From UHGV virus genome UHGV-0240317: a stretch of 64,000 nucleotides of DNA. One strand, written 5' to 3'. Made by a program: the position numbers and the translations under genes. The number at the start of each line of letters is the position of its first letter. Positions within the stretch are counted from its first letter, which is position 1. The notes beneath the pieces are model-generated. The model was not told the DNA's origin. It searched no databases and was given only the letters and a program-made list of their open reading frames with translations. The DNA is from a virus. Positions 7,610 to 26,706 of this stretch are shown here, in pieces.

Positions 7610-9225
7610 AAAATTTTATCGGTTGTTCCAACCTCTGGGTCACCATCATATGTGAATAAAAATATCTATCCTTCTTAACAACCTTCTTAAGCTTACTCTC
7701 TATATATAGTTATATAGTACTATATAGTATCTTAGTATCTATCTAGTGGTCTTAATAGCCCCTCTGTATAGCCCTTCTAAACACTCTTCTAACAAGCCTT
7801 CTTAACAACCTATACAATCACCTTAACCATCTCTCTACACTCTCTTAGAAGCTCCTATACACCTCTTAATCTCTATGTCAGCTATGTTACTCTCTATAGA
7901 TGTTCACTAGGTATTACTAAGCCTCTATATAGACTTTTTTAACAAACTTAACAGGAGTATCTTTACAGACCTTATCTCACAAGGTCTAACACGGTACTAA
8001 CAAGGTATCTTATAAGCCTGTTATTACCTGTATTTTTAAAAGGCTGTATAGGTAATTATTCAGAATCTTAAAATTTTTATAAAATAGGACTATCAAGTCA
8101 TTTTTTAGGGTCTTTGAAGGAACTGAAAAATATCTGTCTAGGATGTATATCTGCTTGGTAGCCCTTAACAGCTCCCTTACAAGTACTTTGCAGAATTTTA
8201 AAGTATCCTTAACAATCTCTTAACAGTTCTCACACCTTCTTAACAACTCTTCAAAGGTCTTAACAGATTCTTAACAGAACTAACAAGGCTGTAACAAGTT
8301 CTTAACAGTCAATACATGGTATTTATAGTTTCTTAACAGATGACTAATAAGAGCTAACAAGTTAATTTTTAAGAGTTATTTTGTAGGGATTGGTAACAAT
8401 ACCAATTAAGATAATTAACAAGTTTCTAACAAGTGTTTAATCTTTTTAACAAGCTATTAACATGGTCACAGTGGTTGGTTACAAACACAACTTCTCTTTC
8501 TTATCGTTCCCTTTGCTTCTTAGTGATTCTTTAAACATACCTCTTAAAAGCTCTGTACAGCTCTGTATAGCCTCTTTTAAGTCTCTTCCTAGTAGTTACA
8601 CCCCAACTGTACAGATAGCTCTTTATAGGGCTTTACAGGGGCTTTTAAGGCTATGTCAAAGACTCTTACAAGGCTTTTACGTGGTCTTAACAGAGATTTA
8701 ACAAGGGGCTAACAAGTTGCTAACAAGTGCCTTAAAAGCATAACTATGTAGGGTTTGTTAAGAAATTGTTGAGAAAATGTTAAGGGGGCTAGCATTTACG
8801 TAACTTTGAAGATACATTTACGTAACTTTATAGCCCCTTTTACGTAACTTCAAAGTAACTTTAAAGCCCCTATAACATACTTTTTAGTGACTATCAAGGG
8901 GTTGTTTAGTTATTCACAAGATAGCTAACGAGATAATAAAGCTTACACCCTTATAAGATTCTTTTAAGGCTCTAGGAAGCTTTATAAAGGGCTTTTTAGG
9001 GTGAGTTAATGCAATCCCTTAAGTTAGGTTGATAAGGCTGTTATAGAGCTTTATAGAGCGTTTAAATGGGCCATCCCCTTTCTGGGGGTTATTGGCTTTT
9101 ATTTAAGTTGATTTGATAAGAGGTTATAGAGTAGACTATAGAGTTATTGCTTTTAAGGTCTGATAAGATTCTGGAAAGGTGAGGAAAGGGATTGTATAGG
9201 GGTTTGATAAGACGTAAAAAAAAAA
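7610..9225. repeat. ORF-free repeat-rich region (iteron-like motifs)
   Basis: many copies of CTTAACA(A/G)/CTAACAAG, three TTTACGTAACTT (8810-8860), four TGATAAG + TATAGAG (9040-9220); no credible ORF. Confidence 0.6.
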
Positions 9226-9282: not shown

Positions 9283-9531
9283 TTAGTTATAATCTTGTTT
9301 GTTGTAGTACAGGGAGACGATTTTTTCTCCCCAATAGTGATAAGTGTGACCATGCGTAAGAACTTCCTGTTTTGTTTCCTCCCAGAACTCATCCGAAGGA
9401 TTATAATCTTTGATGGTCTGACTGATAATACCTTTCACCATTTCAAAGGTGTTATCAGTGCCTGCAATGTCAAATTTAACATCCAGAGAGGAAAAACCGA
9501 ACTCGTTAACAGTAGCGCGGATAGTTGCCAT
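9283..9531 (-). CDS. hypothetical protein
   Basis: ORF preceded by class A conserved upstream element with GGAGA RBS. Confidence 0.55.
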   Translation of the reverse strand: MATIRATVNEFGFSSLDVKFDIAGTDNTFEMVKGIISQTIKDYNPSDEFWEETKQEVLTHGHTYHYWGEKIVSLYYNKQDYN

Positions 9532-9595
9532 TTTTGAATCTCCTAGTTTAAGGGTTTTATTTAGTGGGGGAGGTCATCCCCCGTTGATTGACAAT
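9532..9595 (-). repeat. class A conserved inter-genic element
   Basis: GAATCTCCTAGTTTAAGG..TTTAGTGGGG(G/A)AGGTCAT..CCCCGTTGATTGACAATTTAC. Confidence 0.7.
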
Positions 9596-10126
9596 TTACC
9601 GACTTTTAATTGTCTCGTCAATATCTTTTTCAATGTCTTTTAAAGTTTTTTCTAAGTTCTTGATATTAAAGGTTAAACCTTCACCAAGAGTCTTAGAGTA
9701 ACCACTAGGACGTAAATTATACAGCTTAATTTCTTCCACTTTAAAGAGGCTAACTAACTCACCGTTTACATCATAAGCCATTGAAACAGTATTTGCAGGT
9801 GCATTGTAAAACTTGTTTAGTGACTTGATAGAACGTTCATAAGCCATTTTATAACCGTTTAAAAGGTTTTTAACGTGGTTGTGAACGTTTTTACACTCAT
9901 CTAGATAAATCTCTAAGAATAACGGTAATAATTCCGCTACAGCTTGCATAAAGTGAGAGGCTACAACGGTAGAAACATTACGACGATGAACGTAATAAGC
10001 CCCGTTTTCTGATTTAGTGATGGTTGCAAAGTGTACACCATTGCAACGAAATTCATAGGTATCTTTAACAGGCTTTGACATGACATGAATTGAACGGATG
10101 TAGTTGATAGCTTTGAACTTGTTCAT
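9596..10126 (-). CDS. hypothetical protein
   Basis: ORF; class A element upstream. Confidence 0.6.
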   Translation of the reverse strand: MNKFKAINYIRSIHVMSKPVKDTYEFRCNGVHFATITKSENGAYYVHRRNVSTVVASHFMQAVAELLPLFLEIYLDECKNVHNHVKNLLNGYKMAYERSIKSLNKFYNAPANTVSMAYDVNGELVSLFKVEEIKLYNLRPSGYSKTLGEGLTFNIKNLEKTLKDIEKDIDETIKSR

Positions 10127-10200
10127 TTTAGAATCTCCTAGTTTAAGGGCTTTGTTTAGTGGGGAAGTTCATTCCCTCCCCGTTGATTAGTAATTTACTT
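10127..10200 (-). repeat. class A conserved inter-genic element
   Basis: same consensus as 9532-9595. Confidence 0.7.
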
Positions 10201-10351
10201 GTTTTGATATCTGATTGCAAGCAATTTTTTAAGTTTATCTATAAAGAATCTTTTAAGTTAATCCCTTTAAGATAAACCCCCCTCGAACAAAGTTACCAAT
10301 GTCAATAGGTATTGTCAACATTTTTTTAAAAGTTTTTTTGTAAGTCATTGA

Positions 10352-10693
10352 TTAACTGATGAATATTTTTTCAGGTTTTACATAGCTGATACGTTGGTTT
10401 TTTAGCAGGTCATCCCATAACAAGGCGGCAATGTGCCCATATCCGGCCTCACGCAGACCCTTCATCGTTTCAACTCGACTCTCAAAACGATTTGCGTAAT
10501 ACTCGCTATTAAGTGTCGTTTTGTTCCCTTCGTTATCTGTATGGATGATTTGCATCACTTGAAAGGGGCTGACATCCTCGCCTTTGTTCCACTGCTCAAA
10601 GTATTTTAGGCACTGCATAGGTGACATCTTATCACTTACTTGAGTTGACCAAGATGAATCTTCTTTATCGGTAATTATAGTTACATAAGCCAT
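10352..10693 (-). CDS. hypothetical protein
   Basis: ORF; class A element upstream. Confidence 0.6.
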   Translation of the reverse strand: MAYVTIITDKEDSSWSTQVSDKMSPMQCLKYFEQWNKGEDVSPFQVMQIIHTDNEGNKTTLNSEYYANRFESRVETMKGLREAGYGHIAALLWDDLLKNQRISYVKPEKIFIS

Positions 10694-10765
10694 TTTAGAA
10701 TCTCCTAGTTTAAGGACTTTATTTAGTGGGGAAGGTCATTCCCTCCCCGTTGATTGACAATTTAC
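10694..10765 (-). repeat. class A conserved inter-genic element
   Basis: same consensus. Confidence 0.7.
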
Positions 10766-10784
10766 AGACTTTTATCAGGCTTGT

Positions 10785-11018
10785 CTAGTCTTTTTCAATG
10801 ATAATTTCATATTGACCATCGACACTGTCAAAATAGACGCCGTCTTCATCTTCTGTCTTAAAGTAGCATTGAATATCATCACTGGCGGGATAGTCTTGTC
10901 TTGCTATCTGGCAAACTTGAATAGCATTTTCTTTACTTCCTGTGAACTCCTCAAGCCCTTTAAAATCACATGAATGGCCATTACAAATTGAGAGGATGAG
11001 ATAAACGGTTGTTAGCAT
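10785..11018 (-). CDS. hypothetical small cysteine-rich protein with hydrophobic N-terminus
   Basis: ORF; GCCCCTTGTAGGGGC hairpin just upstream. Confidence 0.5.
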   Translation of the reverse strand: MLTTVYLILSICNGHSCDFKGLEEFTGSKENAIQVCQIARQDYPASDDIQCYFKTEDEDGVYFDSVDGQYEIIIEKD

Positions 11019-11084
11019 GATTTAAGCCCTCTAAAAGCCCCTACAAGGGGCTGATTAGTGTTTATAAGGTGATTGCATAGGTTT

Positions 11085-11627
11085 TTAGAAAAAGCTCTTT
11101 AAATCCTCTTCTGCAATGTTTCCTGTCAGTGTATCCATGATGTCACAAAAAACCTGAATACTGTCGGACTGTTGAACACTTTTAGCAAGAAGCTCCAGAG
11201 ACTCATCAAGATAGTTTAAATTTGGATTATCCAATGAAGGAAGACAAAAAGGTGAATACATAGCGTTAAACTCTGTTGTATAGACCTTTTTAATCCAATT
11301 TACATCAAAGTACTCTGTAAAACTTGCTACACTCGACATATTATCACAAGAATAATCATCGTTTAGCTCATCCTCTGGAATATCGAGTTCTAAGATAACA
11401 ATATTTTGAGTCTTCATCTGAAAAGCTGCGGTGATAGTGGCATTGCCTAGAGCCTGCTGGATACCTTCAGAGATTATCTCTTCCTCATCGTCGCCATAGA
11501 TTTTATTTTCTGGGTACACGTAAAAATTGCCGTCCATATCCGAACAATTCCATGCGCCAGATGGTTTATCACCGTTATTAATCAGGTTGAGGAAATTTTC
11601 TTGAGTAGTACCGTGAAAGCATTTCAT
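11085..11627 (-). CDS. hypothetical protein (acidic)
   Basis: ORF; class B element upstream. Confidence 0.6.
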   Translation of the reverse strand: MKCFHGTTQENFLNLINNGDKPSGAWNCSDMDGNFYVYPENKIYGDDEEEIISEGIQQALGNATITAAFQMKTQNIVILELDIPEDELNDDYSCDNMSSVASFTEYFDVNWIKKVYTTEFNAMYSPFCLPSLDNPNLNYLDESLELLAKSVQQSDSIQVFCDIMDTLTGNIAEEDLKSFF

Positions 11628-11712
11628 TTTTGAATCTCCAGTTTAGGATTTAGTGGTAAAGCTCTTTATCTGGGGCTTACTTTATCGAACTGTAAGCCCC
11701 TTGTAAAGTACT
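11628..11712 (-). repeat. class B conserved inter-genic element
   Basis: GAATCTCCAGTTTAGGATTTAGTGGTAAAGCTCTTTATCTGGGGCTTAC...GTAAGCCCCTTGTAAAGTACTTTA with perfect hairpin. Confidence 0.7.
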
Positions 11713-11916
11713 TTATTTGTTATTTTTTACAACTTTTAAAACCGCACGATAACCTAAGCAATAGGAATCACCGAAGAGCGACCGGCCCATGAAGGAGTCC
11801 TCTGTAATATCTTTCGCCGTGACGGTTTTTTCTACGCCGTGAAATAGGACTACATCACCAACTTTAATATCTTTGATGTGCGTTGTTTCAATGGTTAAAC
11901 CGTTAATAATAGCCAT
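11713..11916 (-). CDS. hypothetical protein
   Basis: ORF; class A element upstream. Confidence 0.55.
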   Translation of the reverse strand: MAIINGLTIETTHIKDIKVGDVVLFHGVEKTVTAKDITEDSFMGRSLFGDSYCLGYRAVLKVVKNNK

Positions 11917-12015
11917 TTTTGAATCTCCTAGTTTAAGGGTTTTATTTAGTGGGGAGGTTATCGCCCCCGTTGATGTGTAATTTAATCTATCTAAAAACCA
12001 GTGTCAACAAAATTT
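11917..12015 (-). repeat. class A conserved inter-genic element (long variant)
   Basis: shares a 41 bp tail GTTGATGTGTAATTTAATCTATCTAAAAACCAGTGTCAACA with the copy at 12780-12867. Confidence 0.7.
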
Positions 12016-12420
12016 TTAGAGTTCTGCATAAATTGCATCGCAGATACCACGAAAATCATGATTTGTCAAATTACGTTGTAACCAAGTGGCGAAAAAGTCA
12101 GCTATTGCAAAGTTAGCGTAATACTCGACAGATAGCCACACTTTAACAGCAAACCGAAACATTTTCAAATCAAGCTCTTTATTCATTACCTTAGATTTGC
12201 CTAACATGTCAGCCATTTCATATTGTGCACCGTCTAGCGTGATACCTGCTGCAACGTCAATCAATGAGATTTTCACATTTTCAACGTCTAAGATAACACT
12301 TTGAATCTTCCCGATAATGTTGTGCAATGTTTCATCAGGCGCTGATGATGTCAGAACATTAATCCTGTTGACGGTCAAACGTGCTTTTAAAATTGATAAT
12401 TCACGGTTATTAATAGCCAT
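12016..12420 (-). CDS. hypothetical protein
   Basis: ATG at 12420 (MAINN...) with GGAGAA RBS; track ORF starts at an upstream TTG. Confidence 0.55.
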   Translation of the reverse strand: MAINNRELSILKARLTVNRINVLTSSAPDETLHNIIGKIQSVILDVENVKISLIDVAAGITLDGAQYEMADMLGKSKVMNKELDLKMFRFAVKVWLSVEYYANFAIADFFATWLQRNLTNHDFRGICDAIYAEL

Positions 12421-12506
12421 TTTTAAGTTCTCCAATTTAGGATTGAGTAGTAAAGCTCTTTATCTGGGGCTTACTCTATCGAACTGTAAGCCCCTTGTAA
12501 AGTACT
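12421..12506 (-). repeat. class B conserved inter-genic element
   Basis: same consensus and hairpin as 11628-11712. Confidence 0.7.
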
Positions 12507-12779
12507 TTACATTAAATGCAGTTTTTTGCCTTTTACTATAATGTAACTCGATGCGCTATTGCTTTGCACATCCTGATAAATTCTGCGCAAACGTCCTTCG
12601 TAGTATACTTTCCAACTGGTTGGAATCTTTTTCCCGTATCCTGTAGCAGTTTTTTGGAGTCCTGCAACTTGCCAATCTAAGATATGAGTTTCAGCCTGTA
12701 AATCCTCAAAGTGCATGACACCATCTACATAGTGACGTAGTGTGACATTTAAAGTACGACCGTTGTTAGTAGTATACAT
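12507..12779 (-). CDS. hypothetical protein
   Basis: ORF; class A element upstream. Confidence 0.55.
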   Translation of the reverse strand: MYTTNNGRTLNVTLRHYVDGVMHFEDLQAETHILDWQVAGLQKTATGYGKKIPTSWKVYYEGRLRRIYQDVQSNSASSYIIVKGKKLHLM

Positions 12780-12867
12780 TTTGGAATCTCCAGTTTAGGA
12801 CTTTATTTAGTGGGGAAGGTCATTCCCTCCCCGTTGATGTGTAATTTAATCTATCTAAAAACCAGTG
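12780..12867 (-). repeat. class A conserved inter-genic element (long variant)
   Basis: same consensus; shared 41 bp tail. Confidence 0.7.
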
Positions 12868-13200
12868 TCAACAGTTTTGTTTTCGTTTGCTCAATTCTTG
12901 AACAATTACAGCGTAGTAGTCTTTTAAGTCACTGACATTTAAAGCATTTATCAGAGAATTATAATCATCAACTAACTGAAAATCATCTTTGAAGATGTCA
13001 CTTATCTGATAGGTTTTCGCTTTGTATCTGAAGCTCATCTCTAGCCGCTTTATTTGCTCATCACTTAAACGCTCCAGAAAGCTCCCTACAAGGTTATTGC
13101 TAACCTGTTGTGTGATTGCCTTACTTGCCAGATTATAGGCGCTATAAGCCTTATAGAGCGCCAGAATAGCGATGATTGCAGTTATGCCCATCATTAACAT
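12868..13200 (-). CDS. hypothetical membrane protein
   Basis: N-terminal hydrophobic helix MLMMGITAIIAILALY. Confidence 0.55.
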   Translation of the reverse strand: MLMMGITAIIAILALYKAYSAYNLASKAITQQVSNNLVGSFLERLSDEQIKRLEMSFRYKAKTYQISDIFKDDFQLVDDYNSLINALNVSDLKDYYAVIVQELSKRKQNC

Positions 13201-13490
13201 GGTGCTTCCTCTTTACGTGACACTTTGCCATTTACAGTTATCTCATAAGAATCTAGTAAATCGCTTTTAGATTTGACAGGATTTTTAAGAGTATCATCAT
13301 AGATATTAACTTGCAATACAGGTTTTTTATACTCCCTGCAACTATTCCATAAGCAAATCACTACACGACGACCTTTTATTTTGCCGTGTAACCATTCCAT
13401 AACATCATGGCTGTTTCTTGATGTTTCAATGAAATCAATTTTGTTGAGTAATTTGCTTAGATTTTCACGCACTTGATTTGATAATTTCAT
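13194..13490 (-). CDS. hypothetical protein
   Basis: ORF; hybrid A/B element upstream. Confidence 0.55.
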   Translation of the reverse strand: MKLSNQVRENLSKLLNKIDFIETSRNSHDVMEWLHGKIKGRRVVICLWNSCREYKKPVLQVNIYDDTLKNPVKSKSDLLDSYEITVNGKVSRKEEAPC

Positions 13491-13582
13491 TTTAGAATCT
13501 CCTAGTTTAAGGGCTTTATTTGATAAATCTCTTTATCTGGGGCTATCCTACCAGCTTGATAACCCCGTGTAAAGAAATCTGT
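13491..13582 (-). repeat. hybrid class A/B inter-genic element
   Basis: class A 5' part (CTCCTAGTTTAAGGGCTTTATTT) fused to class B-like CTCTTTATCTGGGGCT hairpin. Confidence 0.6.
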
Positions 13583-14095
13583 TTAGTTCTTAAAGATATT
13601 CATCACTGAATCTTTTAATGCTTCCAAGCGTTCTAATACTTCAGTTTCTGCGTCTGAATTGTTCACCTCTTCTTTTAGTCTATCCTCTAAATCATCGCCG
13701 TCACTATAGCACCAATCAAAGGCATATCCTAGATAAAAACTCTCTAAAACCGTGTTGCCATTTGCATCGATAACTTTCGCGGCAAGGTTGTATTCTGAAG
13801 CCTCTAAATCTCTTTCTAGTTCTTTCTGTAAGCTGGTGTAAGCCTCTTTTGATGGGTTTTCCCGGCCTTGTTTTGCATAGTCACTAGAAAGCTGTTTAAG
13901 GTTATAATTTAAAGGGATTGCATATTTAAAATCGTTACGCTGACAGTTAGGGTTTTTAATAGTCACGCCGCCTTGATGGTCATCTGTAAACTTCCAATTA
14001 TCAAGATTATGGCTTGCTTCGTAGCAATTAACAGCTTCATAAATAATGGTGAATTTTTCTTTTACAACTTCAAAGGTAGCGTCTACAGTTTTCAT
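13583..14095 (-). CDS. hypothetical protein
   Basis: ORF; class B element upstream. Confidence 0.6.
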   Translation of the reverse strand: MKTVDATFEVVKEKFTIIYEAVNCYEASHNLDNWKFTDDHQGGVTIKNPNCQRNDFKYAIPLNYNLKQLSSDYAKQGRENPSKEAYTSLQKELERDLEASEYNLAAKVIDANGNTVLESFYLGYAFDWCYSDGDDLEDRLKEEVNNSDAETEVLERLEALKDSVMNIFKN

Positions 14096-14180
14096 TTTGG
14101 AATCTCCAGTTTAGGATTTAGTGGTAAAGCTCTTTATCTGGGGCTTAAGATATCAGCTTTTAAGCCCCTTGTAAAGTACT
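14096..14180 (-). repeat. class B conserved inter-genic element
   Basis: GGGGCTTAA-gatatcagctt-TTAAGCCCC hairpin plus conserved leader. Confidence 0.7.
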
Positions 14181-14474
14181 TTATTTGTTAATTTTTAGCT
14201 TTGCATAACTTCTCATTGTACGAATGAAGGATGTTAATGCTACGCGTCTAATATATGCCTTTTTCGTGTATACATTTGTCTTCCCGATAGTGTTTACACA
14301 TGTAAAAAGGTTTATCAGTGAATTTTTTAACTTCAACTGTTTATCAACCTTCACGCCCCACCTTACAGCAGTTTGTTTTCCGTTGTCAACCACTTTCCCG
14401 CCTAACTTTTTCGCCATGATGCGAGCGTCATCACGAGTTTTTGCAGGAATTACAACGTTTTTGATAATAGCCAT
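14181..14474 (-). CDS. hypothetical basic protein
   Basis: ATG at 14474 (MAIIKN...) with GGAGAA RBS. Confidence 0.55.
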   Translation of the reverse strand: MAIIKNVVIPAKTRDDARIMAKKLGGKVVDNGKQTAVRWGVKVDKQLKLKNSLINLFTCVNTIGKTNVYTKKAYIRRVALTSFIRTMRSYAKLKINK

Positions 14475-14562
14475 TTTTAAGTTCTCCAATTTAGGATTGA
14501 GTGATAAAGCTCTTTATCTGGGGCTTAAGATATCAGCTTTTAAGCCCCCTGTAAAGTACTTT
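14475..14562 (-). repeat. class B conserved inter-genic element
   Basis: near-identical to 14096-14180. Confidence 0.7.
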
Positions 14563-14769
14563 TTATTTATCGTAGTAGTAAATTGCTGTCTGTCTTGTAA
14601 ACTTCTTAGTGTTTATTGTAAGGTAGCAATTAGAATTAATAGCCGTTTCTACATAGTTGCAATAGTCAGTTTCTGAAATTCTACGCCATGCGCCGCACAC
14701 TTGCATGTAAAAACGTTTTACATTTGTATTAACGTTGGTTGTAACCATCAATTCACGACTGTAAAGCAT
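14563..14769 (-). CDS. hypothetical protein (first gene of the cluster)
   Basis: ORF preceded by conserved leader CCCACTTCCTAAACTGGAGAATCAAAA and the promoter below. Confidence 0.55.
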   Translation of the reverse strand: MLYSRELMVTTNVNTNVKRFYMQVCGAWRRISETDYCNYVETAINSNCYLTINTKKFTRQTAIYYYDK

Positions 14770-14809
14770 TTTTGATTCTCCAGTTTAGGAAGTGGGCTTG
14801 ATTGCCCGT

Positions 14810-14838
14810 CTGATGCAAATATTAGATAACCATACTCA
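14810..14838 (-). promoter_or_regulatory. sigma70-like promoter for the small-gene cluster
   Basis: minus strand TTGACT - 17 nt - TAATAT with AT-rich upstream region; ~35 nt before the ATG at 14769. Confidence 0.65.
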
Positions 14839-14984
14839 AAGAGTCAATAGGAATTTTAAAAATATTTTTGCAAAAATTGTAATGAAACGGGTGCGCGCGA
14901 CTACCACAAAACAGAACTACAATCAAGAATTATTTTTCAATCCGCTACAAATTTTTCTGTTGACTTTTATTTCCAGATGTGGTA

Positions 14985-15240
14985 GCCTTGTGAGAAATGG
15001 CGACATCCCCACCTGTACCCACCTACCTGCACAATTCTAAAATGATTTTTCTTGCCCGACCTGAGCGGGGTCTGCACGTTTTGAAAATGAAAAAGCTCTT
15101 TGGAGATTACCTGCACAGTTTGAAAATGAATTTTCTCTTTGGAGTTCAAAACTTTCTCTATAGATTTCTCTACAGAACTCTACCTGCACAATCCTGAAAT
15201 GAAAAAGCCCTCCTTACCTGAAAAATTTACCAGATAAGAA
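14985..15240. repeat. four copies of a ~38 bp direct repeat
   Basis: ACCTGCACA(A/G)TT(C/T)TGAAAATGA(A/T)TTTT..CTTTGGAG repeated; no credible ORF. Confidence 0.6.
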
Positions 15241-15275
15241 AGGCTTAGTCTATTGTGAATATCTTACAGAGTTTC

Positions 15276-16061
15276 TTAGTTCTTTGCGTCTAAGAAGGTA
15301 ACTTCTGATGATGAGAAAATTTCTTCGATATCCTCATCAGTTCTTGCATAGATGTAGGTGTCTGCATCGTTACCAAATGTCACGGCAATTCTATGATTGC
15401 TCTTCGACAGGTGGGTAACTAGAGCGTTACTTAGAGACATCTTTTCAACCGGAGGGTTACTTTGATGTATCTTACCTTTTCTTCGTCTGAAGAGGGTAAC
15501 TTCATTATCTGCGAACACTGCTACACCTGCAAAGTATTCTGGTTCACAGTAGTTCTTCCAACCTGAGCGTAACTTATGGTACATCTCTCCTTCGTAGACA
15601 TATAGATAAACATCTACACTCTTCATTGCCTGATTGATAATAACTGTGACAGCTTGAGGGTCAAGTCCACCAATACCTGCACCAATCATAGGTAAACCAA
15701 CTTTCTTCAACTGATTAACTTCACAGTATCTGTTAAGCTGTTTCAAAGATGACTCTAAAGCACTGTATCGGGCATCTTTACCAGTCTTAAGCTGAGTGTA
15801 AAGGTTAGCTATACGACCTTGTTTTAAACGTGCTACAGAGAAATTACCCAGTAAATTTTCACAGGGTTTGTGTCCTATACCACCTGCATATAGATAAACT
15901 TCTGTATCGGTCTCATATGCTTTTGGGTAAAGTTTAGAAATCTTGTCAGCGATACCTGCACCCATTAAATTCATACAGTTGCAACCGTGACCGATGATGT
16001 CAAACTTACCTTTATCAAATGCGGCAAAGATATCACCATTGATTATTTTTACAATACCCAT
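15276..16061 (-). CDS. macrodomain protein (TARG1/DarG-like) with unknown C-terminal domain
   Basis: NGDIF..DIIGHGCNCMNLMGAGIA and GLPMIGAGIGGLD match TARG1-type macrodomain motifs as recalled. Confidence 0.7.
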   Translation of the reverse strand: MGIVKIINGDIFAAFDKGKFDIIGHGCNCMNLMGAGIADKISKLYPKAYETDTEVYLYAGGIGHKPCENLLGNFSVARLKQGRIANLYTQLKTGKDARYSALESSLKQLNRYCEVNQLKKVGLPMIGAGIGGLDPQAVTVIINQAMKSVDVYLYVYEGEMYHKLRSGWKNYCEPEYFAGVAVFADNEVTLFRRRKGKIHQSNPPVEKMSLSNALVTHLSKSNHRIAVTFGNDADTYIYARTDEDIEEIFSSSEVTFLDAKN

Positions 16062-16262
16062 TTAACATCTCTCCCAAGACTCTTTATCTTCTGAAGGTTT
16101 TACACGCTGTCCTTCGTGGTCTACCCAGATACATCCACAACCTTCACAGATTACTGGCATTGCGTAGCCAGCTTTAAAGTCATCCTCAGTGATAAGACCT
16201 TTTAAGTCACCTGTATCACGTCCAAACATTTCTATAGAACAGTCTTTGCAGAAGTCAGCCAT
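16062..16262 (-). CDS. hypothetical zinc-ribbon protein
   Basis: CKDC...CEGCGC cysteine pairs; start taken at MADFCKDC. Confidence 0.45.
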   Translation of the reverse strand: MADFCKDCSIEMFGRDTGDLKGLITEDDFKAGYAMPVICEGCGCIWVDHEGQRVKPSEDKESWERC

Positions 16263-16482
16263 TGATAATTGCCTCTTGAATGATGATACCTTTACCACAA
16301 CGGCTTTTAAAGTCTTCCAATGGTTGGGAGATGAAGCCACGCAAGCAATCACTAAATACTAAGTTTTTCCTGTAGGCTATCACATCGTTTGCTGTAAACG
16401 GGATGACTTCATTTCTTCCAATGAATACTGCTGACCGGATGAGTTTCCGTGTCTTTTTATCTCTGGCTAGAATTACTCTCAT
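16255..16482 (-). CDS. hypothetical protein
   Basis: ORF track. Confidence 0.5.
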   Translation of the reverse strand: MRVILARDKKTRKLIRSAVFIGRNEVIPFTANDVIAYRKNLVFSDCLRGFISQPLEDFKSRCGKGIIIQEAIING

Positions 16483-16783
16483 AATTTACCTTCTCAGTTA
16501 GCTCATATAAATCAACATGCTCAATACTATCAATGTTGATATCAATCTTTTTGAAGCGTTCTATCACTTCATTGTCAGTCATCCATATCAGACACCAATG
16601 ATTCTGGATGGATTCTTCAAGAAGTTCAACACAATCTTTAAAAGTTTTTGTATCACTTCTTGTGCCTACTACTGCGATTGTTCCATATAGCCACTTACCA
16701 TTGCCATAAGATACTTGTGCTACGCCAACTTCTTTACCTTTCTCGTAGTAAACGGCTACAAAGTCTCTTCCATTAATCTGCAT
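16457..16783 (-). CDS. hypothetical protein
   Basis: ORF track. Confidence 0.55.
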   Translation of the reverse strand: MQINGRDFVAVYYEKGKEVGVAQVSYGNGKWLYGTIAVVGTRSDTKTFKDCVELLEESIQNHWCLIWMTDNEVIERFKKIDINIDSIEHVDLYELTEKVNYESNSSQR

Positions 16784-16785
16784 AG

Positions 16786-17058
16786 TTACTTCCTCGTTTT
16801 GAGAACTGCTAAGATTTCTTTAGAGTCTGGTAAGAACCATGTGTAGTGATTCTCTTTGATTTCTGGATGAGTGTCAACCTTTATTTTGCACTCTTTACCA
16901 ACATGCTTAAGCTGTGCTGTGATACCTTGCATAAAGATGTGACACATTACATTATCCATAATCGTAGGTAAGAAATCAATCCTCATGTAAGTATCTTTCG
17001 GTCTCGGTAGAAGTAAGTAACCTTCTGTGTAGAAAGTTTCATCATTACTTTGTGTCAT
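16786..17058 (-). CDS. hypothetical protein
   Basis: ORF track. Confidence 0.55.
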   Translation of the reverse strand: MTQSNDETFYTEGYLLLPRPKDTYMRIDFLPTIMDNVMCHIFMQGITAQLKHVGKECKIKVDTHPEIKENHYTWFLPDSKEILAVLKTRK

Positions 17059-17324
17059 TACTGCTTATTCCCTAATAAAATCATATCAATAAGGTTATTA
17101 GCTTTGATTGTGCACTGGTAAAATCCATCACGATAGAACTCAAGGGCTGCTGCCACATCACTACCAGTATTACCTTTGATAGTAAATCTTGAATCTTCTT
17201 GAGTATACTTATCACTCTCACTTACTTGGGAGTTTTTGAATGTACTGTTCACTTTGTTCGTTGAACACCCTGACATAATTATCAGTAACACAAACATTAT
17301 AAAACTCTGGCTTAGTTTTTTCAT
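17058..17324 (-). CDS. putative o-spanin (Rz1-like outer-membrane lipoprotein)
   Basis: signal peptide with lipobox-like MSGC; 5' end overlaps the 3' end of the i-spanin ORF in another frame. Confidence 0.6.
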   Translation of the reverse strand: MKKLSQSFIMFVLLIIMSGCSTNKVNSTFKNSQVSESDKYTQEDSRFTIKGNTGSDVAAALEFYRDGFYQCTIKANNLIDMILLGNKQ

Positions 17325-17565
17325 ACGTTAGTACCTCTTTTGTGTGCTTATTCTTAGCAAGCACATCTTTCAAATCATTTTTGTAATTGGTGCTGAGTGT
17401 GGCTAAACCTTCCTGATAAGCATCTTTGGCAACACTTATTAGTTTCTCATTATTTAGCTCAGTTTCAGCAACTTGGTAGTCTCTGTAAGAGTATCCTCCC
17501 CAGACACCTGTCCCAACTAAGAAAACAATTATGAAAGTAGCTTGACAGAACTCTTTAAATGTCAT
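17218..17565 (-). CDS. putative i-spanin (Rz-like)
   Basis: N-terminal TM helix then predicted coiled-coil; overlapped by lipoprotein ORF. Confidence 0.6.
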   Translation of the reverse strand: MTFKEFCQATFIIVFLVGTGVWGGYSYRDYQVAETELNNEKLISVAKDAYQEGLATLSTNYKNDLKDVLAKNKHTKEVLTYEKTKPEFYNVCVTDNYVRVFNEQSEQYIQKLPSK

Positions 17566-17583
17566 TTAACAATCTCCTGAAAT

Positions 17584-17606
17584 GAAAAAGGCTCCCGAAG
17601 GAGCCT
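17584..17606 (-). terminator. rho-independent terminator
   Basis: GGCTCC-cgaa-GGAGCC with T-run on the minus strand. Confidence 0.65.
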
Positions 17607-17617
17607 GTATCTTAACC

Positions 17618-18082
17618 TTAACCGAGGACTTTAGCAAGGATATTCGCAGCCATCGAAGAAGCTTTTGCAGCAGCAACTACGCCAGCTTTGACAGTGCTAT
17701 CCTTAATAGCAGATACCGTTGCAGCATCAGTAAAGAGATAAGTGATTGTTTTGGAACCACTTGTAAAGGAAAGCATAAGAGTAGTTTCCAGATTGAAAGA
17801 GCGATACGGAGCACCTTCTTTAACGATACCTTCAGCACCTAACTCTGAAGCCTTACCCATATCATAGATAGTCATCAGGTTTTCTTTGTGTGCAGTCGTT
17901 GAACCAACACCTTTTACGTGCTTCTTAACGTTCAACAATGCACGATATTCACGAATGCTACCATCAGCTTTTACATTAACAGCACGGAAAATTTTACCTT
18001 CAAAGTTACCTTGAATCATTTTACGAACTACTTCAGATTTGTTTGCCGTATCGTCCAGTGCTACCGTAATGATATTATTCAT
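17618..18082 (-). CDS. hypothetical protein
   Basis: ORF track. Confidence 0.6.
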   Translation of the reverse strand: MNNIITVALDDTANKSEVVRKMIQGNFEGKIFRAVNVKADGSIREYRALLNVKKHVKGVGSTTAHKENLMTIYDMGKASELGAEGIVKEGAPYRSFNLETTLMLSFTSGSKTITYLFTDAATVSAIKDSTVKAGVVAAAKASSMAANILAKVLG

Positions 18083-20524: not shown

Positions 20525-20603
20525 CTTATTACTCTCTCTTGTTAGTTAATAAATCATTTTGTAAGGCTATTCTAAGGGGCTTTGAAGCCCCTTGTCAAAC
20601 ACT

Positions 20604-22970
20604 TTAATCGTAAGTTGTAGTCCCTTCTGGAACACACTTCACATCAAAGCCTAAGAACTTACTCACTTCGATGGGTGACACTTTATTCCAATCTAAATGA
20701 GAAAGCAAGAAGTTTTCTTGTTTTCTTTTTGAAAGGTAGTTTGTCACCTTAATGACCATGCGGTCACCAGCTTTCTTAATTTTCTTGTACAGCTTTGTAT
20801 CATTGTCAAGGCAGTCTTTCAAAGTTTGCAACCTACTAATAGTGTAAGTATATGCAAACGGTGCAGCAACGTATTGGATTTTACCAAACATTGCCTCTAC
20901 AGCATCTTCATTACCTTCTAAGAAGATAGTTTTGTTTGTATCCCGTGAATAACAATAGCCACGAGAAATCTTCCTGTTATTGAACGTAAAGTTTCTGGCA
21001 ATAATCCAACTGCTTGTAAGGTCGAGGACACCATTCATATAGATACGTGTCATATACCTGTTATGATTAATCCAATGAACATCAGTTAAGCTGTCGTTCA
21101 AGAGTTTCTCATCTACTTCAATCCAGTCTTCTGGTATCTTTTTCCAATTTGCTTTTCGGAAAACATAGACTGTCTTACCTGTAACATTGGCAACTGACTT
21201 AGCTACATCTTCTGGAGATGAGCAAAAACATTCACCATCAACGGTATCACCTACCGCCTTAATGTAAAGCTGAGGCTCTTCAATTGTATCAAAGTCCTCT
21301 GAAACCTCTTTATAGGAAGCTACACCTTCTGCTGGAACAGCTTTCCAGAGTTTTACAACACCTCTTACAGCTTCTTTACGCTGATAATGATGTTCCTTAT
21401 CAGACATCTTCACAATCTTTAACAAGCTTTTATCAAGTTTGTGTAGATTGATTAGGTCGTCTAACTCTTTTTCAGTCGAGAATACAAAGACAATACCATT
21501 GTATCTGTGAAACAGATTCGACTCACTGGCATAGTCTCGACATGCACCACGCAAGATTTGATTGCGTCCTACAGTCTTCTCAGTACCGTTTTTATTGCGA
21601 CGGTCATTTATAACAAACAAAAACTGTTCAATTTGGCTTTTACGCATTGCGCCAAAGATATTGAACATACTTGCCTCTTGAGTGTAGGAAAGCGATGTTG
21701 CACGAATCTTACTCTCTAAAGAGTTGAACTTGACATAAGCAACTGGGTCATAAAGATAATCCACTTTAGGGATATTGTTCCCGTTCCTATCAACCTTAAT
21801 ATTACCTTTACCGTCACGTTCGTAAATGACTGAGCCGTCTTCTGCGTAGATAATTCCACGACGAATGTTTAGTAATTCTTCTTCCAGAGAATCAAGCTTA
21901 ACACCACCCCACTCTAGCTTTGGGCACACAGCATTAAACATCTCTCGTGAGTTCAAACGTAACTCAGCATAAGCCTGTGCAGCATCCATGAGTGTAGGTT
22001 GGCTATTAACTTTCTTGATAACATCCTTTGTAATCGCTTCAGTTATCTTTTTAGTAGCCTCAATGATAACATTTTTTGTCGTATCATTCATCTGCAATGC
22101 TTCACGAGAAGCTGCAATAGCAACTGAACCAATAGGCATGTAGATGTTTACAAGGTCTACGCTCCTACGGAAAAACTCTGGCAAGACTTTGAAGAAATCA
22201 TCACCAAGTAATGCTTCCATGTTCACTGGATAGGCAATATTACCCATAACCACGTTAAACTCTGTTCTATTGCTGCTTGAACGCCAGCTATGCTTATGAG
22301 TCATGGCATCATAGACACCTTCTTCACGAGCAATCACATACATATCTGCTAATATATCATTATACTCCACATTACTCTCTGGTTTTACAGCAAAGTATGA
22401 GTATACATTACCAGCCTCTTCAAAGAACTTTGAAATACGGTGGTCAGCAACTGCCACACGTACAGCTAAACCATTAGGTTCTTTTGTTGGGTTAGTGGTC
22501 AGTTTAGTTACTTGAGGGATACCATTCTCAAGATAAACAGAGTACTTATTAACAACACCGTCAACATAGCTAGACACTGTGAATGACTGAGCAATTGCAA
22601 ATAGTGATTTTGAGCCGATACCCATTGCACCAATGTAGTCATCAGAGTCATTCTTCGTAGAAGCCCCATAGTTTAGGTACAAACTCATAACTTTATCATG
22701 AGTTAATCCAGTTCCAAAATCACGAACTTCAAAGTAAGGCTCAAAACGAGTAGGTAAATGCACATGGAACGGGATGTTCTCTTTTCCAGCCTCTTTCTGA
22801 GCATCTACTGCGTTACATGACAGTTCACGAATCACTGCCCTTTCTTTAAAGGTATATACACCAGAACTCAAAAGGCTGAACATTTCAGGTGTCATTGTAA
22901 TCTGTGCTTGAGACGTCTCTAAAGAAGTTGAACTCTTAATCACTTCTGCGTGGTCGTTTACCATGCGCAT
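20604..22970 (-). CDS. rIIA: rIIA-like protein with GHKL-type ATPase domain
   Basis: N-box RELSCNAVDA, G1 box VRDFGTGL, G2 box GAMGIGSKS; 788 aa. Confidence 0.6.
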   Translation of the reverse strand: MRMVNDHAEVIKSSTSLETSQAQITMTPEMFSLLSSGVYTFKERAVIRELSCNAVDAQKEAGKENIPFHVHLPTRFEPYFEVRDFGTGLTHDKVMSLYLNYGASTKNDSDDYIGAMGIGSKSLFAIAQSFTVSSYVDGVVNKYSVYLENGIPQVTKLTTNPTKEPNGLAVRVAVADHRISKFFEEAGNVYSYFAVKPESNVEYNDILADMYVIAREEGVYDAMTHKHSWRSSSNRTEFNVVMGNIAYPVNMEALLGDDFFKVLPEFFRRSVDLVNIYMPIGSVAIAASREALQMNDTTKNVIIEATKKITEAITKDVIKKVNSQPTLMDAAQAYAELRLNSREMFNAVCPKLEWGGVKLDSLEEELLNIRRGIIYAEDGSVIYERDGKGNIKVDRNGNNIPKVDYLYDPVAYVKFNSLESKIRATSLSYTQEASMFNIFGAMRKSQIEQFLFVINDRRNKNGTEKTVGRNQILRGACRDYASESNLFHRYNGIVFVFSTEKELDDLINLHKLDKSLLKIVKMSDKEHHYQRKEAVRGVVKLWKAVPAEGVASYKEVSEDFDTIEEPQLYIKAVGDTVDGECFCSSPEDVAKSVANVTGKTVYVFRKANWKKIPEDWIEVDEKLLNDSLTDVHWINHNRYMTRIYMNGVLDLTSSWIIARNFTFNNRKISRGYCYSRDTNKTIFLEGNEDAVEAMFGKIQYVAAPFAYTYTISRLQTLKDCLDNDTKLYKKIKKAGDRMVIKVTNYLSKRKQENFLLSHLDWNKVSPIEVSKFLGFDVKCVPEGTTTYD

Positions 22971-23002
22971 AATACTTTCCTCTTAGTTTACTGTTAAATT
23001 AC

Positions 23003-23175
23003 TTATTAAACATTTTACCAGAACCACCACACATAGGGCAACAACCTGCTCTTGTATAGCCTTCTCCGTTACAGAAGTCACACTTCTTGTGTTCTGCATA
23101 GTACTTGCAAAGAAGGTAAACAAATACTGCTACACTACCAAGTGACAGTAAAATTTCTATCCAATATGCTTGCAT
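23003..23175 (-). CDS. small membrane/zinc-ribbon protein (not in ORF track; coordinates approximate)
   Basis: own translation: hydrophobic N-terminus then CDFCNG...CCPMCGG. Confidence 0.35.
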
Positions 23176-23492
23176 GACTCACCTCTCATATTCTTGTAAA
23201 GGATAAAGCTTCTGTCATGGACGATACTTGTAGATACTGCAAAGTTACTTTCAAGTATCTGTTTGTTTGGATTGTAGAAGCTTTCTTTAAACTCGTCAAG
23301 TGCAAATTGGTGATTGTCTGGAAGACCTTTTACACAGACTTTTATTGTGATTGCTGCTGCAATCTTGCCAGTCAGTTCTTCTTTAGCTGCTACTAAAATT
23401 TTGTTAAGGAACTTTTTACCATCTTCAGGTTTCTTAATGTTCTCCCAACGTTCTTCTAGGACAACGTTAATGTTCATTTCTTTGATTTTCAT
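23157..23492 (-). CDS. hypothetical protein
   Basis: ORF track. Confidence 0.55.
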   Translation of the reverse strand: MKIKEMNINVVLEERWENIKKPEDGKKFLNKILVAAKEELTGKIAAAITIKVCVKGLPDNHQFALDEFKESFYNPNKQILESNFAVSTSIVHDRSFILYKNMRGESCKHIG

Positions 23493-23509
23493 AGTCTTCT
23501 CCAGAAATT

Positions 23510-23532
23510 AAAAAGGCTCCCGTAGGAGCCTC
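23510..23532 (-). terminator. rho-independent terminator
   Basis: GGCTCC-cgta-GGAGCC with T-run on the minus strand. Confidence 0.65.
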
Positions 23533-23545
23533 TTATCATATACTT

Positions 23546-25327
23546 TTAAAGCTGCTTGTCAATATTATTTCGAATATCACCAAGAGTTGTGTAGCCGAAC
23601 TGCTCAGAGTCGCTAAAGACTAGACGTAAAGCACAAGCTGGATGTTCAAGTGCATCTGCAAAGCTCTGGAACCCATAGCCATCTACAGCTTTCAGGTTTT
23701 CACCATCCCACATAGGTGCTACACCACCAAAAGCAGACTTCTTAACACCACTATCTGTTTTAGGGTCTTTTGCAAGCATAATCTCTTTACCACCAATGCT
23801 TGCAAGAGTTGCTTTAACAGCAAATGCAAAGGTGTCACGAGTCATGTACTGGTAAGTGTAAGAGCCTACGCCAAACACTACGTTAGAGCTTGCAAAACCC
23901 ATTTCATACAGACGCTTCAGGATTTCGTTTGCACGTTCCAGCGTGATAGAGTCGCCATAGATAAGGCCAATGTGCTCATCCAGTACCTTAAAACCTTTAG
24001 AGTTAATAGTTCCTCCAAAGATGTTATACAGTGTCTTGATAGCTCCATCAATCTCTGCTACAGGGCGTGTTACAACGTTTGCAGAACCAACCATATAAGC
24101 GTTCTTCAACATCACTGTATCAGCAACTTCAAAGTCTTCTCTGTCAACAACCATTTCGTAGCCTTCTGACAGTAGCCATCCAGCAATACCATAGTTGATG
24201 TTTTCAAGCTTCATGTTCAGAACAGCATTCAACATTGTGTCACTGGCTTCCAGCTTGCTTAGGTGCTCGTAATAAGCCTTCTTAGCACATTCTAAGTGGA
24301 TTGCTTTATAACCTGTGACAATATGTACAGGGTCTCCAGAGTCAGGACGAATTACCAGTTTGCCATCACGTTCCATAATTTCTTTACGAAGTGCTGGTAA
24401 AATTTCTGACACAGTTCTCCAGAAGTTATAAGTGTCTGAAACAACACTTGCAATACCAGTTGTGTAAGTTTCTGTTAAGAAACGACGGAAGGTTTGTAAC
24501 TCACCTTTAAAGCGTCTTTCATCTTCAATCAATTCATTACCACCCTCCCAAGCAATGTTTGCACACATTACAGAGTGTTCAGTGGCTGGTACAGAACTGC
24601 CAATATCAGAGATTGGGTAAGACTGACCATAGATTCGTTTAGCCGTATACACAGCAGGGAAGCTATCAGTTCCTTTAAAGCTGGTTAAGTGGCCTACAGC
24701 ATTAAATGCGTCATCAGTAAAGCCGGACATACCACGCATAGCAAAGTCATGGCACTGATAAGGCAAATGTAAGTCGTTGTCACAAGTAAGGTCAGCCCAC
24801 TTCTTACAGATACGTTTGTAGTGCAATGCAATAGTTGCAATGGTACAAGCCTTCCAAATCTCAGCAGAGAAAGCATCTTCCAGATAACCTGCTACCCAAT
24901 GGAAACCTGAAACAGTGTTCTGAAAAACAATCATCGGAACACGCATAGGGACAACCGTGCCTTCTTCTACAGCGTATACTTCAACTGGTAGATAACCTAA
25001 GTCGTGAAGTGCTTCCCAATGCTCTCGACCGATAGCATCTTTACCCAGAACACCATTCATGACTTCTAAGATTTCGTCAATTGCTTCTTTTTTATCACGT
25101 TCAAAGAAGGTGGCATTCCAATGGTCTATCAAGTAATCTTTAACGAAACGTTGAATACCAAAAGCCACTACACCATCAATTACTAAGGGGCTGTTAAACC
25201 ACTTATCACTACGTGGTGTCAGGTTCAACATAAGATATTGCGTAGCATCTGGATACTGATATATATGTGATGCCTTGTAAGCATCTGCATTAAGACCTGC
25301 TGGTACTGCATAAAGTGATTTAGTCAT
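23546..25327 (-). CDS. nicotinamide phosphoribosyltransferase family protein (NadV/NAMPT-like)
   Basis: aligns with human NAMPT at DSYK, FKGTD, SVPAxEHS, SVVSDxY, IRPDSG(D/N)P. Confidence 0.85.
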   Translation of the reverse strand: MTKSLYAVPAGLNADAYKASHIYQYPDATQYLMLNLTPRSDKWFNSPLVIDGVVAFGIQRFVKDYLIDHWNATFFERDKKEAIDEILEVMNGVLGKDAIGREHWEALHDLGYLPVEVYAVEEGTVVPMRVPMIVFQNTVSGFHWVAGYLEDAFSAEIWKACTIATIALHYKRICKKWADLTCDNDLHLPYQCHDFAMRGMSGFTDDAFNAVGHLTSFKGTDSFPAVYTAKRIYGQSYPISDIGSSVPATEHSVMCANIAWEGGNELIEDERRFKGELQTFRRFLTETYTTGIASVVSDTYNFWRTVSEILPALRKEIMERDGKLVIRPDSGDPVHIVTGYKAIHLECAKKAYYEHLSKLEASDTMLNAVLNMKLENINYGIAGWLLSEGYEMVVDREDFEVADTVMLKNAYMVGSANVVTRPVAEIDGAIKTLYNIFGGTINSKGFKVLDEHIGLIYGDSITLERANEILKRLYEMGFASSNVVFGVGSYTYQYMTRDTFAFAVKATLASIGGKEIMLAKDPKTDSGVKKSAFGGVAPMWDGENLKAVDGYGFQSFADALEHPACALRLVFSDSEQFGYTTLGDIRNNIDKQL

Positions 25328-25372
25328 CTTTTAATCTCTCTCAAAATGGGGCTTTCAAGCCCCTATAAACTT

Positions 25373-26254
25373 TCAATCAAGGTTTGCTACAGTAACTTGA
25401 CCATAATGTGTTAAGCCACGGTCTTTAGCTTCGCCTAAAGAGTTTGTAGTGTAAATATGGTCGATACCGTTGTCAAGAAGGTTTTCAACACCTTTAGAGA
25501 AGATACCATGTGTTACATAAAGCTCAACACGTTTTGCACCTGCTTCACGTAGGTGTTTAGCTGCCTCTACGAAGGTTCGACCACCATCACAGATATCATC
25601 AAGAATCATGACGGTTTTATCGGTCAAATCAACATCGTCAAGGATTCGCATACCAGTGATTTCTCCAGTCTTAAGATTTCGCACCTTAGACATTGTGATA
25701 TATGGTTTATCCACCTCTTTAGCAGTCTCTGCAATCTTCTTAGAAGCACCTGCATCTGGGGCTACTAAGTAATCAATTAGAGGGTCATTTGCATAGTGGA
25801 CTGCAATCTCCTTTTGAGGAATACTTTGGAAGCAGTTAAACAGGTTATCTGGTACATAACTGTGAGGGTCAACTGCACAGACTGCACCAAATCCCATTGC
25901 ATTTACCTGTTTAGCAAAAACCTTTAAAGCTGCTGCGTCGCCTTTAAACATGTGACGGTCATATCGTGCATTTGGTAAGTAGTAAAAGATGACAGTCTTC
26001 ATGGCATAATCATGAGGAACTAAATCATCAATTGCTTCTTTAGCAAGTGCCACAGCAAACAATGTGTCTTTGTCATAACCCTTTACAATCATAACCACAT
26101 TGTTAATAGATGATGCTGCATAAGCAGTAAAATCAACAAGCTCTTGTGAAAAGTGTCCACCAATCTCACCAGAAGGAAATTGGATAATGTTAAACTCTTC
26201 TTCATGAGTTCCTTTAGTTGGTGAATGAACTGTAACACGGATAGATGTTTTCAT
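25373..26254 (-). CDS. ribose-phosphate pyrophosphokinase family protein (PRPP synthetase-like)
   Basis: ILDDICDGGRTFVEAAKHLREAGAKRV matches the Prs PRPP-binding loop. Confidence 0.8.
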   Translation of the reverse strand: MKTSIRVTVHSPTKGTHEEEFNIIQFPSGEIGGHFSQELVDFTAYAASSINNVVMIVKGYDKDTLFAVALAKEAIDDLVPHDYAMKTVIFYYLPNARYDRHMFKGDAAALKVFAKQVNAMGFGAVCAVDPHSYVPDNLFNCFQSIPQKEIAVHYANDPLIDYLVAPDAGASKKIAETAKEVDKPYITMSKVRNLKTGEITGMRILDDVDLTDKTVMILDDICDGGRTFVEAAKHLREAGAKRVELYVTHGIFSKGVENLLDNGIDHIYTTNSLGEAKDRGLTHYGQVTVANLD

Positions 26255-26383
26255 AGTTTTCTCTCTCTCTCAATCAAAGGTTACGTTTGTTACTGATATT
26301 GCAGCAGAACGTTTTAGGTTTGACAGATACATATCATCTCCAAAATAAAAAGGGAACCTTTACAGTTCCCCTATAGTATCTGT

Positions 26384-26704: not shown

Positions 26705-26706
26705 GA

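Follow-up and report, generated by a model that had tools for sequence, protein, structure and literature searches.

What does a phage do with a protein of 261 amino acids that public records name variously 'phosphatase', 'putative phosphatase', 'macro domain protein', 'O-acetyl-ADP-ribose deacetylase', 'RNase III inhibitor' or 'hypothetical'? The gene in question lies at 15276–16061 of virus genome UHGV-0240317, of which a stretch of 64,000 nucleotides (the window) was analysed; the source genome belongs to a myovirus resembling Felix O1 (Felixounavirus, Ounavirinae), and positions 14000–18000 are 92–94% identical to many Escherichia and Salmonella Felixounaviruses. An earlier sequence-only reading had given the open reading frame (ORF) these coordinates, which proved exact, and had left unstated that it is on the minus strand; it had proposed an N-terminal TARG1/DarG-type macrodomain as a candidate means of countering ADP-ribosylating immunity. 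The analysis described below leads us to favour an orphan antitoxin of the AdfM (anti-DarT factor Macrodomain) type, in which the macrodomain probably removes DarT2-type thymidine-ADP-ribose from phage single-stranded DNA (ssDNA) by chemistry like that of SCO6735, with a putative accessory specificity module at the C-terminus.

A DarG-like macrodomain with glutamine at the lysine position

The coding sequence and the parts of its product are located as follows.

15276–16061, minus strand: complete coding sequence, 261 amino acids plus the stop codon TAA, from the ORF list and translation
15591–16061, minus strand: macrodomain, residues 1–157, of TARG1/DarG (ALC1-like) class and Tk.4/AdfM type
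15978–15989, minus strand: H25-G-C-N28, invariant in the 19 two-domain homologues
15792–15806, minus strand: NLYTQ motif, residues 86–90, with Q90 at the catalytic-lysine position
15660–15683, minus strand: diphosphate-binding loop G127-A-G129-I-G131-G132-L-D134, DarG-like (GxGNGGLD)
15279–15590, minus strand: C-terminal domain, residues 158–261, with a predicted linker helix, six beta strands and a C-terminal helix

Profile and structure comparison bore out the TARG1/DarG-class assignment of the N-terminal region, and the motifs quoted in its favour were present (GDIF...DIIGHGCNCMNLMGAGIA at residues 9–38 and GLPMIGAGIGGLD at residues 122–134). The Pfam Macro profile (PF01661) matched with 32.3 bits against a cut-off of 22 bits (E=1e-7). 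The DarG models of PADLOC (E=1.2e-13) and NCBIfam (antitoxin_DarG, E=3.8e-13) matched at profile positions of approximately 4–154 out of approximately 330 only, the NCBIfam match scoring 49.4 bits against an equivalog cut-off of 250 bits. Residues 1–157 are a DarG-like macrodomain, and the protein is not a DarG. When PDB sequences were searched with the family profile the best match was human TARG1 (OARD1; PDB 4J5R and 4J5S; E=4e-11), with DarG from Mycobacterium tuberculosis (Mtb; E=7e-9) and Thermus aquaticus (Taq; E=3e-7) also found. An AlphaFold2 model of the full-length protein, built from a 19-sequence alignment, had a predicted local distance difference test (pLDDT) score of 86 and a predicted template modelling (pTM) score of 0.86, with macrodomain values of approximately 85–96 pLDDT outside the ligand loops. 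Foldseek comparison of this model gave 234 PDB macrodomain chains at E<=1e-3, of which TARG1 was the best (E=7e-10, template modelling (TM) score 0.81–0.83); TARG1 and DarG (TM 0.73–0.77) ranked above Poa1p and viral macrodomains, and no PDB structural match reached beyond approximately residue 175. The top PDB matches were the same by phmmer, profile and Foldseek searches, namely TARG1 followed by Taq and Mtb DarG.

The macrodomain recurs in approximately 2,800 phage records, and in T4-like phages the gene is tk.4, adjoining vs. Comparison with Tk.4 of the T4-like phage RB5 by BLASTP gave 35% identity over 163 residues (E=8e-25), and the motifs HGCNC, NLYTQ and GxGIxGxD are common to the two proteins. 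T4 lacking its two anti-DarTG1 factors was previously known to remain resistant to DarTG2. In a preprint of November 2025, tk.4 was the sole T4 gene depleted on a DarTG2 host by HIDEN-SEQ, a clean tk.4 knockout became DarTG2-sensitive and the gene was renamed adfM, with enzymatic removal of ADP-ribose from DNA by its product being the authors' own deduction (10.1101/2025.11.20.689424). AdfM of PhiKZ (gp104) was found in 2026 to take thymidine-linked ADP-ribose off oligonucleotides and to give chimalliviruses protection against DarTG2 (PMC13309987). Homology to a factor with a knockout phenotype and to one with demonstrated activity lends support to the proposed counter-defence role against DarT; the further suggestion that ADP-ribose-derived immune signals are processed found no support.

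These two phage proteins differ from the one described here in several respects. Tk.4 has a homologous glutamine-type macrodomain and is likewise the product of a lytic coliphage accessory gene, but it is a single domain of approximately 159 residues whereas the Felixounavirus protein adds 104 residues at the C-terminus; tk.4 lies beside vs/tk whereas the Felixounavirus gene follows spanins and small ORFs, and phenotype data exist for Tk.4 only. PhiKZ AdfM is also a DarG-class phage macrodomain and an orphan antitoxin, and for it de-ADP-ribosylation of DNA has been demonstrated. It keeps a DarG-type N23/K78 pair where the Felixounavirus protein has N28/Q90, and it represents a separate lineage that is imported into the phage nucleus and for which no equivalent C-terminal domain is reported (PMC13309987).

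For comparison of active sites, DarG macrodomain sequences from PDB chains and the TARG1 sequence were aligned by hmmalign to the profile of 35 phage homologues. N28 aligned to N22 of DarG, TARG1 having a serine at that position, and is equivalent to N27 of the Streptomyces coelicolor protein SCO6735, and H25 was equivalent to H32 of TARG1 and H24 of SCO6735. Within the diphosphate-binding loop, G127, G129, G131, G132 and D134 aligned to G117, G119, G121, G122 and D124 of Mtb DarG, with G129 also equivalent to G128 of SCO6735. Q90 aligned to the catalytic lysine of both DarG (K80) and TARG1 (K84), T93 aligned to the thymine-stacking W83 of DarG, the tryptophan being absent, and the catalytic D125 of TARG1 was replaced by glycine (G131). 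The phage protein thus shares the MGAGIA loop and the histidine of TARG1 but lacks both members of its K84/D125 dyad. It resembles bacterial DarG (5M31, 5M3E, 5M3I, 7YK3) in macrodomain fold and class, in the N22 equivalent, in the GxGxGGLD loop and in having a second domain C-terminal to the macrodomain, and differs in the replacement of K80 by glutamine and W83 by threonine, in an unrelated C-terminal domain, in the lack of an adjacent DarT and in its score against the DarG model (49 versus 250 bits). H25, N28, Q90 and G129 were invariant in the homologues. The NL(Y/F)TQ motif was invariant in 35 of 35, single- and two-domain proteins alike and RB5 Tk.4 included, and the whole Tk.4-type clade is therefore without the catalytic lysine of the class.

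Glutamine at this position has a precedent. SCO6735 has Q85 at the K80/K84 position, cleaves thymidine-ADP-ribose from DNA at high turnover and protects against DarT. Its activity is lost entirely when Q85 is changed to alanine or glutamate and also depends on N27; the mechanism proposed for it is water-mediated (PMC9967889, PMC9411070). SCO6735 (PDB 5E3B) is of TARG1/DarG class and is an orphan with no cognate DarT, as is the phage protein, and its H24/N27/Q85/G128 correspond to phage H25/N28/Q90/G129; cleavage and DarT protection are SCO6735's own (PMC9411070), and it differs in being bacterial, single-domain and DNA-damage-regulated. The equivalence was drawn from transitive alignment and literature because direct similarity between the two proteins is only marginal. 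By analogy, glutamine in place of lysine at position 90 does not imply inactivity, and the chemistry would be SCO6735-like rather than TARG1/DarG-like. We infer the SCO6735 route because the catalytic lysine of DarG and TARG1 is here an invariant glutamine beside N28. A conserved active enzyme is argued by this invariance of NL(Y/F)TQ in the 35 homologues together with a ratio of non-synonymous to synonymous substitution (dN/dS, omega) of 0.05 for the macrodomain across 7 Felixounaviruses.

The protein would accordingly be read as a two-domain phage counter-defence enzyme, probably expressed early in infection. Its macrodomain would bind ADP-ribose carried on a nucleic-acid base and hydrolyse the base-ribose bond, Q90 and the neighbouring N28 positioning substrate and an activated water without a lysyl intermediate. 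The likeliest substrate is thymidine-linked ADP-ribose placed on single-stranded phage DNA by DarT2-type toxins (DarTG2), and its removal would restore phage DNA replication.

A lineage-restricted C-terminal domain

The sequence-only reading had recognised no motif in the C-terminal region, and the approximately 104 residues concerned did indeed match nothing in sequence or fold searches. No match was found in Pfam, NCBIfam or PADLOC, nor in a profile search of PDB sequences, and Foldseek against BFVD returned only a member of the same family, from phage SUSP2. A HMMER profile search of 1.84 billion representative proteins recovered only the two-domain family, its truncated fragments and chance matches to beta-propeller and repeat proteins. 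By tblastn the domain was present in 243 of 50,697 phage records, all of them Felixounavirus, Mooglevirus or Suspvirus-type Ounavirinae. Metagenomic relatives carrying it have 33–45% overall identity and keep the rIIA-rIIB...polynucleotide kinase (PNK)-like...macro synteny. The domain was found only fused to a Tk.4-type macrodomain and only in Ounavirinae-like phages, and the macro gene itself is present in nearly all Felixounavirus, Mooglevirus and Suspvirus phages, its synteny being kept in distant relatives. A relation to the DarT-binding domain of DarG was considered and rejected (hhalign probability 0.2% against 7YK3_B). Comparison with PH-like domains, by structure and by profile, gave no clear-cut match.

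In the full-length model the C-terminal domain had a pLDDT of approximately 80–90, compared with 76.5 when modelled alone. This gain in confidence when the macrodomain is present, together with the high pTM, suggests that it packs against the macrodomain to form an integrated two-domain unit. Its sequence is far less conserved: mean pairwise identity was 0.30 versus 0.58 for the macrodomain, being the lower of the two in 170 of 171 pairs, and omega was 0.27 across the 7 Felixounaviruses. The domain is real and constrained, but evolves much faster than the macrodomain. The only conserved residues are P174, G179 and, nearly so, Y236, with a semi-conserved basic hairpin (RRRKGK) at approximately residues 192–197. 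Net charge ranged from -6 to +4 across the family, and a conserved charge signature of a DNA mimic or a DNA-binding domain was rejected on this basis.

A further tail was found in Kolesnikvirus, where the orthologue of Erwinia phage vEam_PM_6 (L010, 2498–3280) is a 260-residue 'phosphatase' that retains the NLYTQ macrodomain. Its C-terminal 100 or so residues are unlike the Felixounavirus domain (hhalign probability 0.06%) and have no Pfam match; inside a single phage subfamily, the tail was either exchanged or diverged past recognition. Across the family the enzymatic head is conserved, and the tails attached to it are interchangeable or extremely divergent.

With respect to function, residues 158–261 would constitute an accessory specificity module packed on the macrodomain. 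It may dock on DarT, as do the unrelated C-terminal domain of DarG and AdfB of ICP1, or alternatively may bind ssDNA or the replisome. A bolder proposal, which we put forward tentatively and consider doubtful, is that the domain is a toxin-recognition module of new fold, by which the two-module logic of DarG (an eraser plus a DarT-binder) was convergently rebuilt in Ounavirinae. The Felixounavirus/Mooglevirus, metagenomic and Kolesnikvirus types of tail would then be specificity cassettes tracking different host ADP-ribosyltransferase toxins, attached to a macrodomain performing toxin-independent, lysine-free, glutamine-based repair.

Alternative substrates and activities

Several points weigh against an AdfM-type antitoxin. 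Catalytic K80 and W83 of DarG are both missing (Q90, T93); the direct match to SCO6735 is weak (5e3b_A, E=0.16–0.37, residues 4–144); and the T4 data, reported in a preprint, are purely genetic and were obtained with a protein just 35% identical. A literature search found no paper on Felixounavirus or Ounavirinae and DarTG, and no experiment on any Ounavirinae protein. Nothing assigns the C-terminal domain a function, and its charge fits neither a consistent DNA mimic nor a DNA binder. The substrate is unreadable from sequence because the class also acts on proteins, O-acetyl-ADP-ribose and ADP-ribose-1''-phosphate. A metagenomic protein of 339 residues (P0027) consists of a Tk.4-type NLYTQ macrodomain fused to the Pfam cREC_REC cyclic-phosphate processing receiver domain, which suggests that some members of the clade act on cyclic-phosphate or ADP-ribose-phosphate metabolites and not on DNA adducts.

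The alternative that survives best, which we nevertheless judge unlikely, is that the protein erases other ADP-ribosylation, namely marks placed on protein or RNA by a phage enzyme or by other ADP-ribosyltransferases acting as host defences or toxins, with the C-terminal domain targeting the substrate. TARG1-class macrodomains, SCO6735 included, also de-modify Asp/Glu-linked proteins (PMC9411070), TARG1 is the top PDB match by both sequence and structure, the thymine-stacking tryptophan of DarG is missing and a lineage-specific extra domain would suit altered targeting. However, the phenotype of Tk.4, the nearest relative with experiments, is DarTG2-specific, the DarG models outscore the generic Macro model, and the annotation of a complete Felixounavirus genome includes no ADP-ribosyltransferase gene.

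Less probable again is the activity implied by the database label, that of a Poa1p-like ADP-ribose-1''-phosphate phosphatase, or an O-acetyl-ADP-ribose deacetylase, clearing NAD-derived by-products of, for example, RNA repair or NAD turnover. PHROG 335 and many records are annotated in this way, but the label is inherited annotation and not data; 'phosphatase' is a propagated term for which no experimental basis was found. The Poa1p sequence alignment is confined to residues 2–60 (E=6e-5) and its fold matches with a TM of 0.72–0.74, both weaker than the matches to TARG1 and DarG. A role of this kind would fit the PNK-like gene 2 kb upstream, the nicotinamide phosphoribosyltransferase and phosphoribosyl pyrophosphate (PRPP) synthetase genes in the same transcription unit and the P0027 fusion. 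Yet RNA ligase, Tpt1/KptA, RtcB and 2H phosphoesterase are all missing from the annotation of a complete Felixounavirus genome, an annotated 'RNA-binding protein' there is DUF2828/DUF7788, and the phenotype of the T4 homologue is anti-DarTG2. An RNA-repair pathway needing an ADP-ribose-1''-phosphate phosphatase was rejected given this lack of annotated ligase, Tpt1, RtcB or 2H enzyme.

Lower still in our estimation, and improbable, is a non-catalytic inhibitor that has lost the catalytic lysine and binds DarT or another ADP-ribosyltransferase, the modified product or ssDNA, the C-terminal domain providing the binding surface. The replacement of K80/K84 by glutamine would be in keeping with this, and inactive mutants of DarG, TARG1 and above all SCO6735 (Q85A) remain able to inhibit DarT through interaction, but in SCO6735 the glutamine is itself required for catalysis (PMC9411070). 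The second domain of DarG and ICP1 AdfB both work by binding DarT, and a fast-evolving domain that is swapped in Kolesnikvirus is what would be expected of an arms-race interface; against this, the domain is unlike that of DarG and single-domain Tk.4 protects T4 with no extra domain. Invariant N28, H25 and diphosphate loop, together with the low omega, fit an enzyme.

A YmdB-like regulator of RNase III or RNA processing, raised by a depositor's note in the phage Meda record and by the legacy title 'RNase III inhibitor' of PDB 5M3I, is scarcely credible, as 5M3I is the Mtb DarG macrodomain and its title a historical mis-annotation, and the 261-residue protein falls in the TARG1/DarG class. YmdB belongs to a different class, MacroD.

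Gene, neighbourhood and significance

The expression signals of the gene and the ORF next to it are located as follows.

16069–16075, minus strand: ribosome-binding site GGGAGAG, 7 nucleotides 5' of the ATG, read directly from the sequence
15205–15246, minus strand: intrinsic terminator, a 17-pair stem followed by a T-run
16062–16262, minus strand: zinc-ribbon ORF of 66 amino acids (CxxC...CxxC, PHROG 2210), its TAA directly abutting the macro ATG

The macro gene starts with ATG at 16061 and ends with TAA at 15276–15278, and PHROG 335 matched along the full length of the product (E=3e-112). Felixounavirus orthologues are 93–97% identical. This is a real gene and not a chance ORF, because it has a ribosome-binding site, a downstream terminator, full-length orthologues in approximately 259 phage records and a low dN/dS that indicates purifying selection. 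The ribosome-binding site falls inside the 3' end of the zinc-ribbon ORF. The terminator sequence is conserved in typing phage 1; it lies just 3' of the gene, which is therefore the last of a long leftward transcription unit. In the annotated relative LinBro the order of this unit is ribonucleotide reductases, PRPP synthetase, nicotinamide phosphoribosyltransferase, rIIA, rIIB, an SLT-like protein, a PNK-like protein, i- and o-spanins, four small ORFs, the zinc ribbon and the macro gene.

The sequence-only reading had placed the gene beside a zinc ribbon and a spanin pair. The former abuts its start codon; the i-/o-spanin pair (17058–17565) is near rather than adjacent, being approximately 1 kb upstream with four small ORFs between. 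No DarT was found next to the macro gene, whose neighbours are phage small ORFs, the spanins and the PNK-like gene. The mechanically called ORF of 96 residues at 16062–16352 (minus strand) is probably the 66-residue zinc ribbon starting from M31 (16262), which fits PHROG 2210 and the annotation of typing phage 1. The zinc ribbon was rejected as a conserved partner of the macro gene, since other genes lie upstream in the distant relatives L003 and L004; in L004 an unrelated small CxxC...CxxC protein (7810–8001) occupies the zinc-ribbon position.

Genes for NAD+ salvage (nicotinamide phosphoribosyltransferase and ribose-phosphate pyrophosphokinase) are in the same leftward unit, at approximately 20600–29000 by synteny and annotated at 29925–33102 in the relative L005. 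Such a pair resembles phage NAD+-reconstitution counter-defence pathways, and the genome arm with the macro gene and the salvage enzymes is rich in NAD/ADP-ribose-related functions. In LinBro the product labelled 'NAD synthetase' is identified by Pfam as a SegE-like GIY-YIG endonuclease.

Downstream of the macro gene is an ORF-free gap of approximately 500 bp (14770–15275), in which no tRNA or Rfam RNA was found. Just past the terminator, in the minus-strand sense, it holds three exact copies and one degenerate copy of TCATTT-N6-TGTGCAGGTA between 15024 and 15202 (15181–15202, 15108–15129, 15069–15090, the degenerate one, and 15024–15045). The approximately 270 nucleotides holding these repeats share about 98% identity with typing phage 1 and the adjoining 50 or so diverge completely; the set may be a small RNA or an array of binding sites for a regulator. 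Cassette-like direct repeats also occur between the small minus-strand genes at 9500–14600 (four of 108, five of 75 and five of 36 nucleotides). Every one contains a G/C hairpin (GGGGAGGGAATGACCTTCCCC) and a T-run along with promoter-like hexamers and a ribosome-binding site, so that each tiny ORF is framed by a modular unit of promoter and terminator. Elsewhere in the window a group I catalytic intron lies at 46957–47240 on the plus strand (Rfam RF00028, 62 bits, E=2e-13); in relatives the nrdD and DNA polymerase genes are split, with HNH endonucleases nearby.

Phage AdfM macrodomains are already established by the literature of 2025–2026, and the macrodomain of the 261-residue protein is a further AdfM member. 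What is new is its obligatory fusion in Ounavirinae to an unrecognisable fast-evolving domain, the swapping of tails within the subfamily and the finding that AdfMs of Tk.4 type are glutamine-type and not lysine-type. The label 'phosphatase', a mis-annotation spread through hundreds of phage records, is corrected. Glutamine throughout the Tk.4-type AdfM clade links phage AdfM to the poorly understood mechanism of SCO6735, and a lineage-restricted, fast-evolving domain tethered to an anti-defence enzyme offers an entry point to eraser specificity or to a second mode of toxin neutralisation. DarTG systems occur commonly among enterobacterial pathogens, and Felixounaviruses find wide use in biocontrol and therapy against Salmonella and E. 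coli; if these phages do carry a built-in antidote to DarT2, knowledge of it would help to predict their host range.

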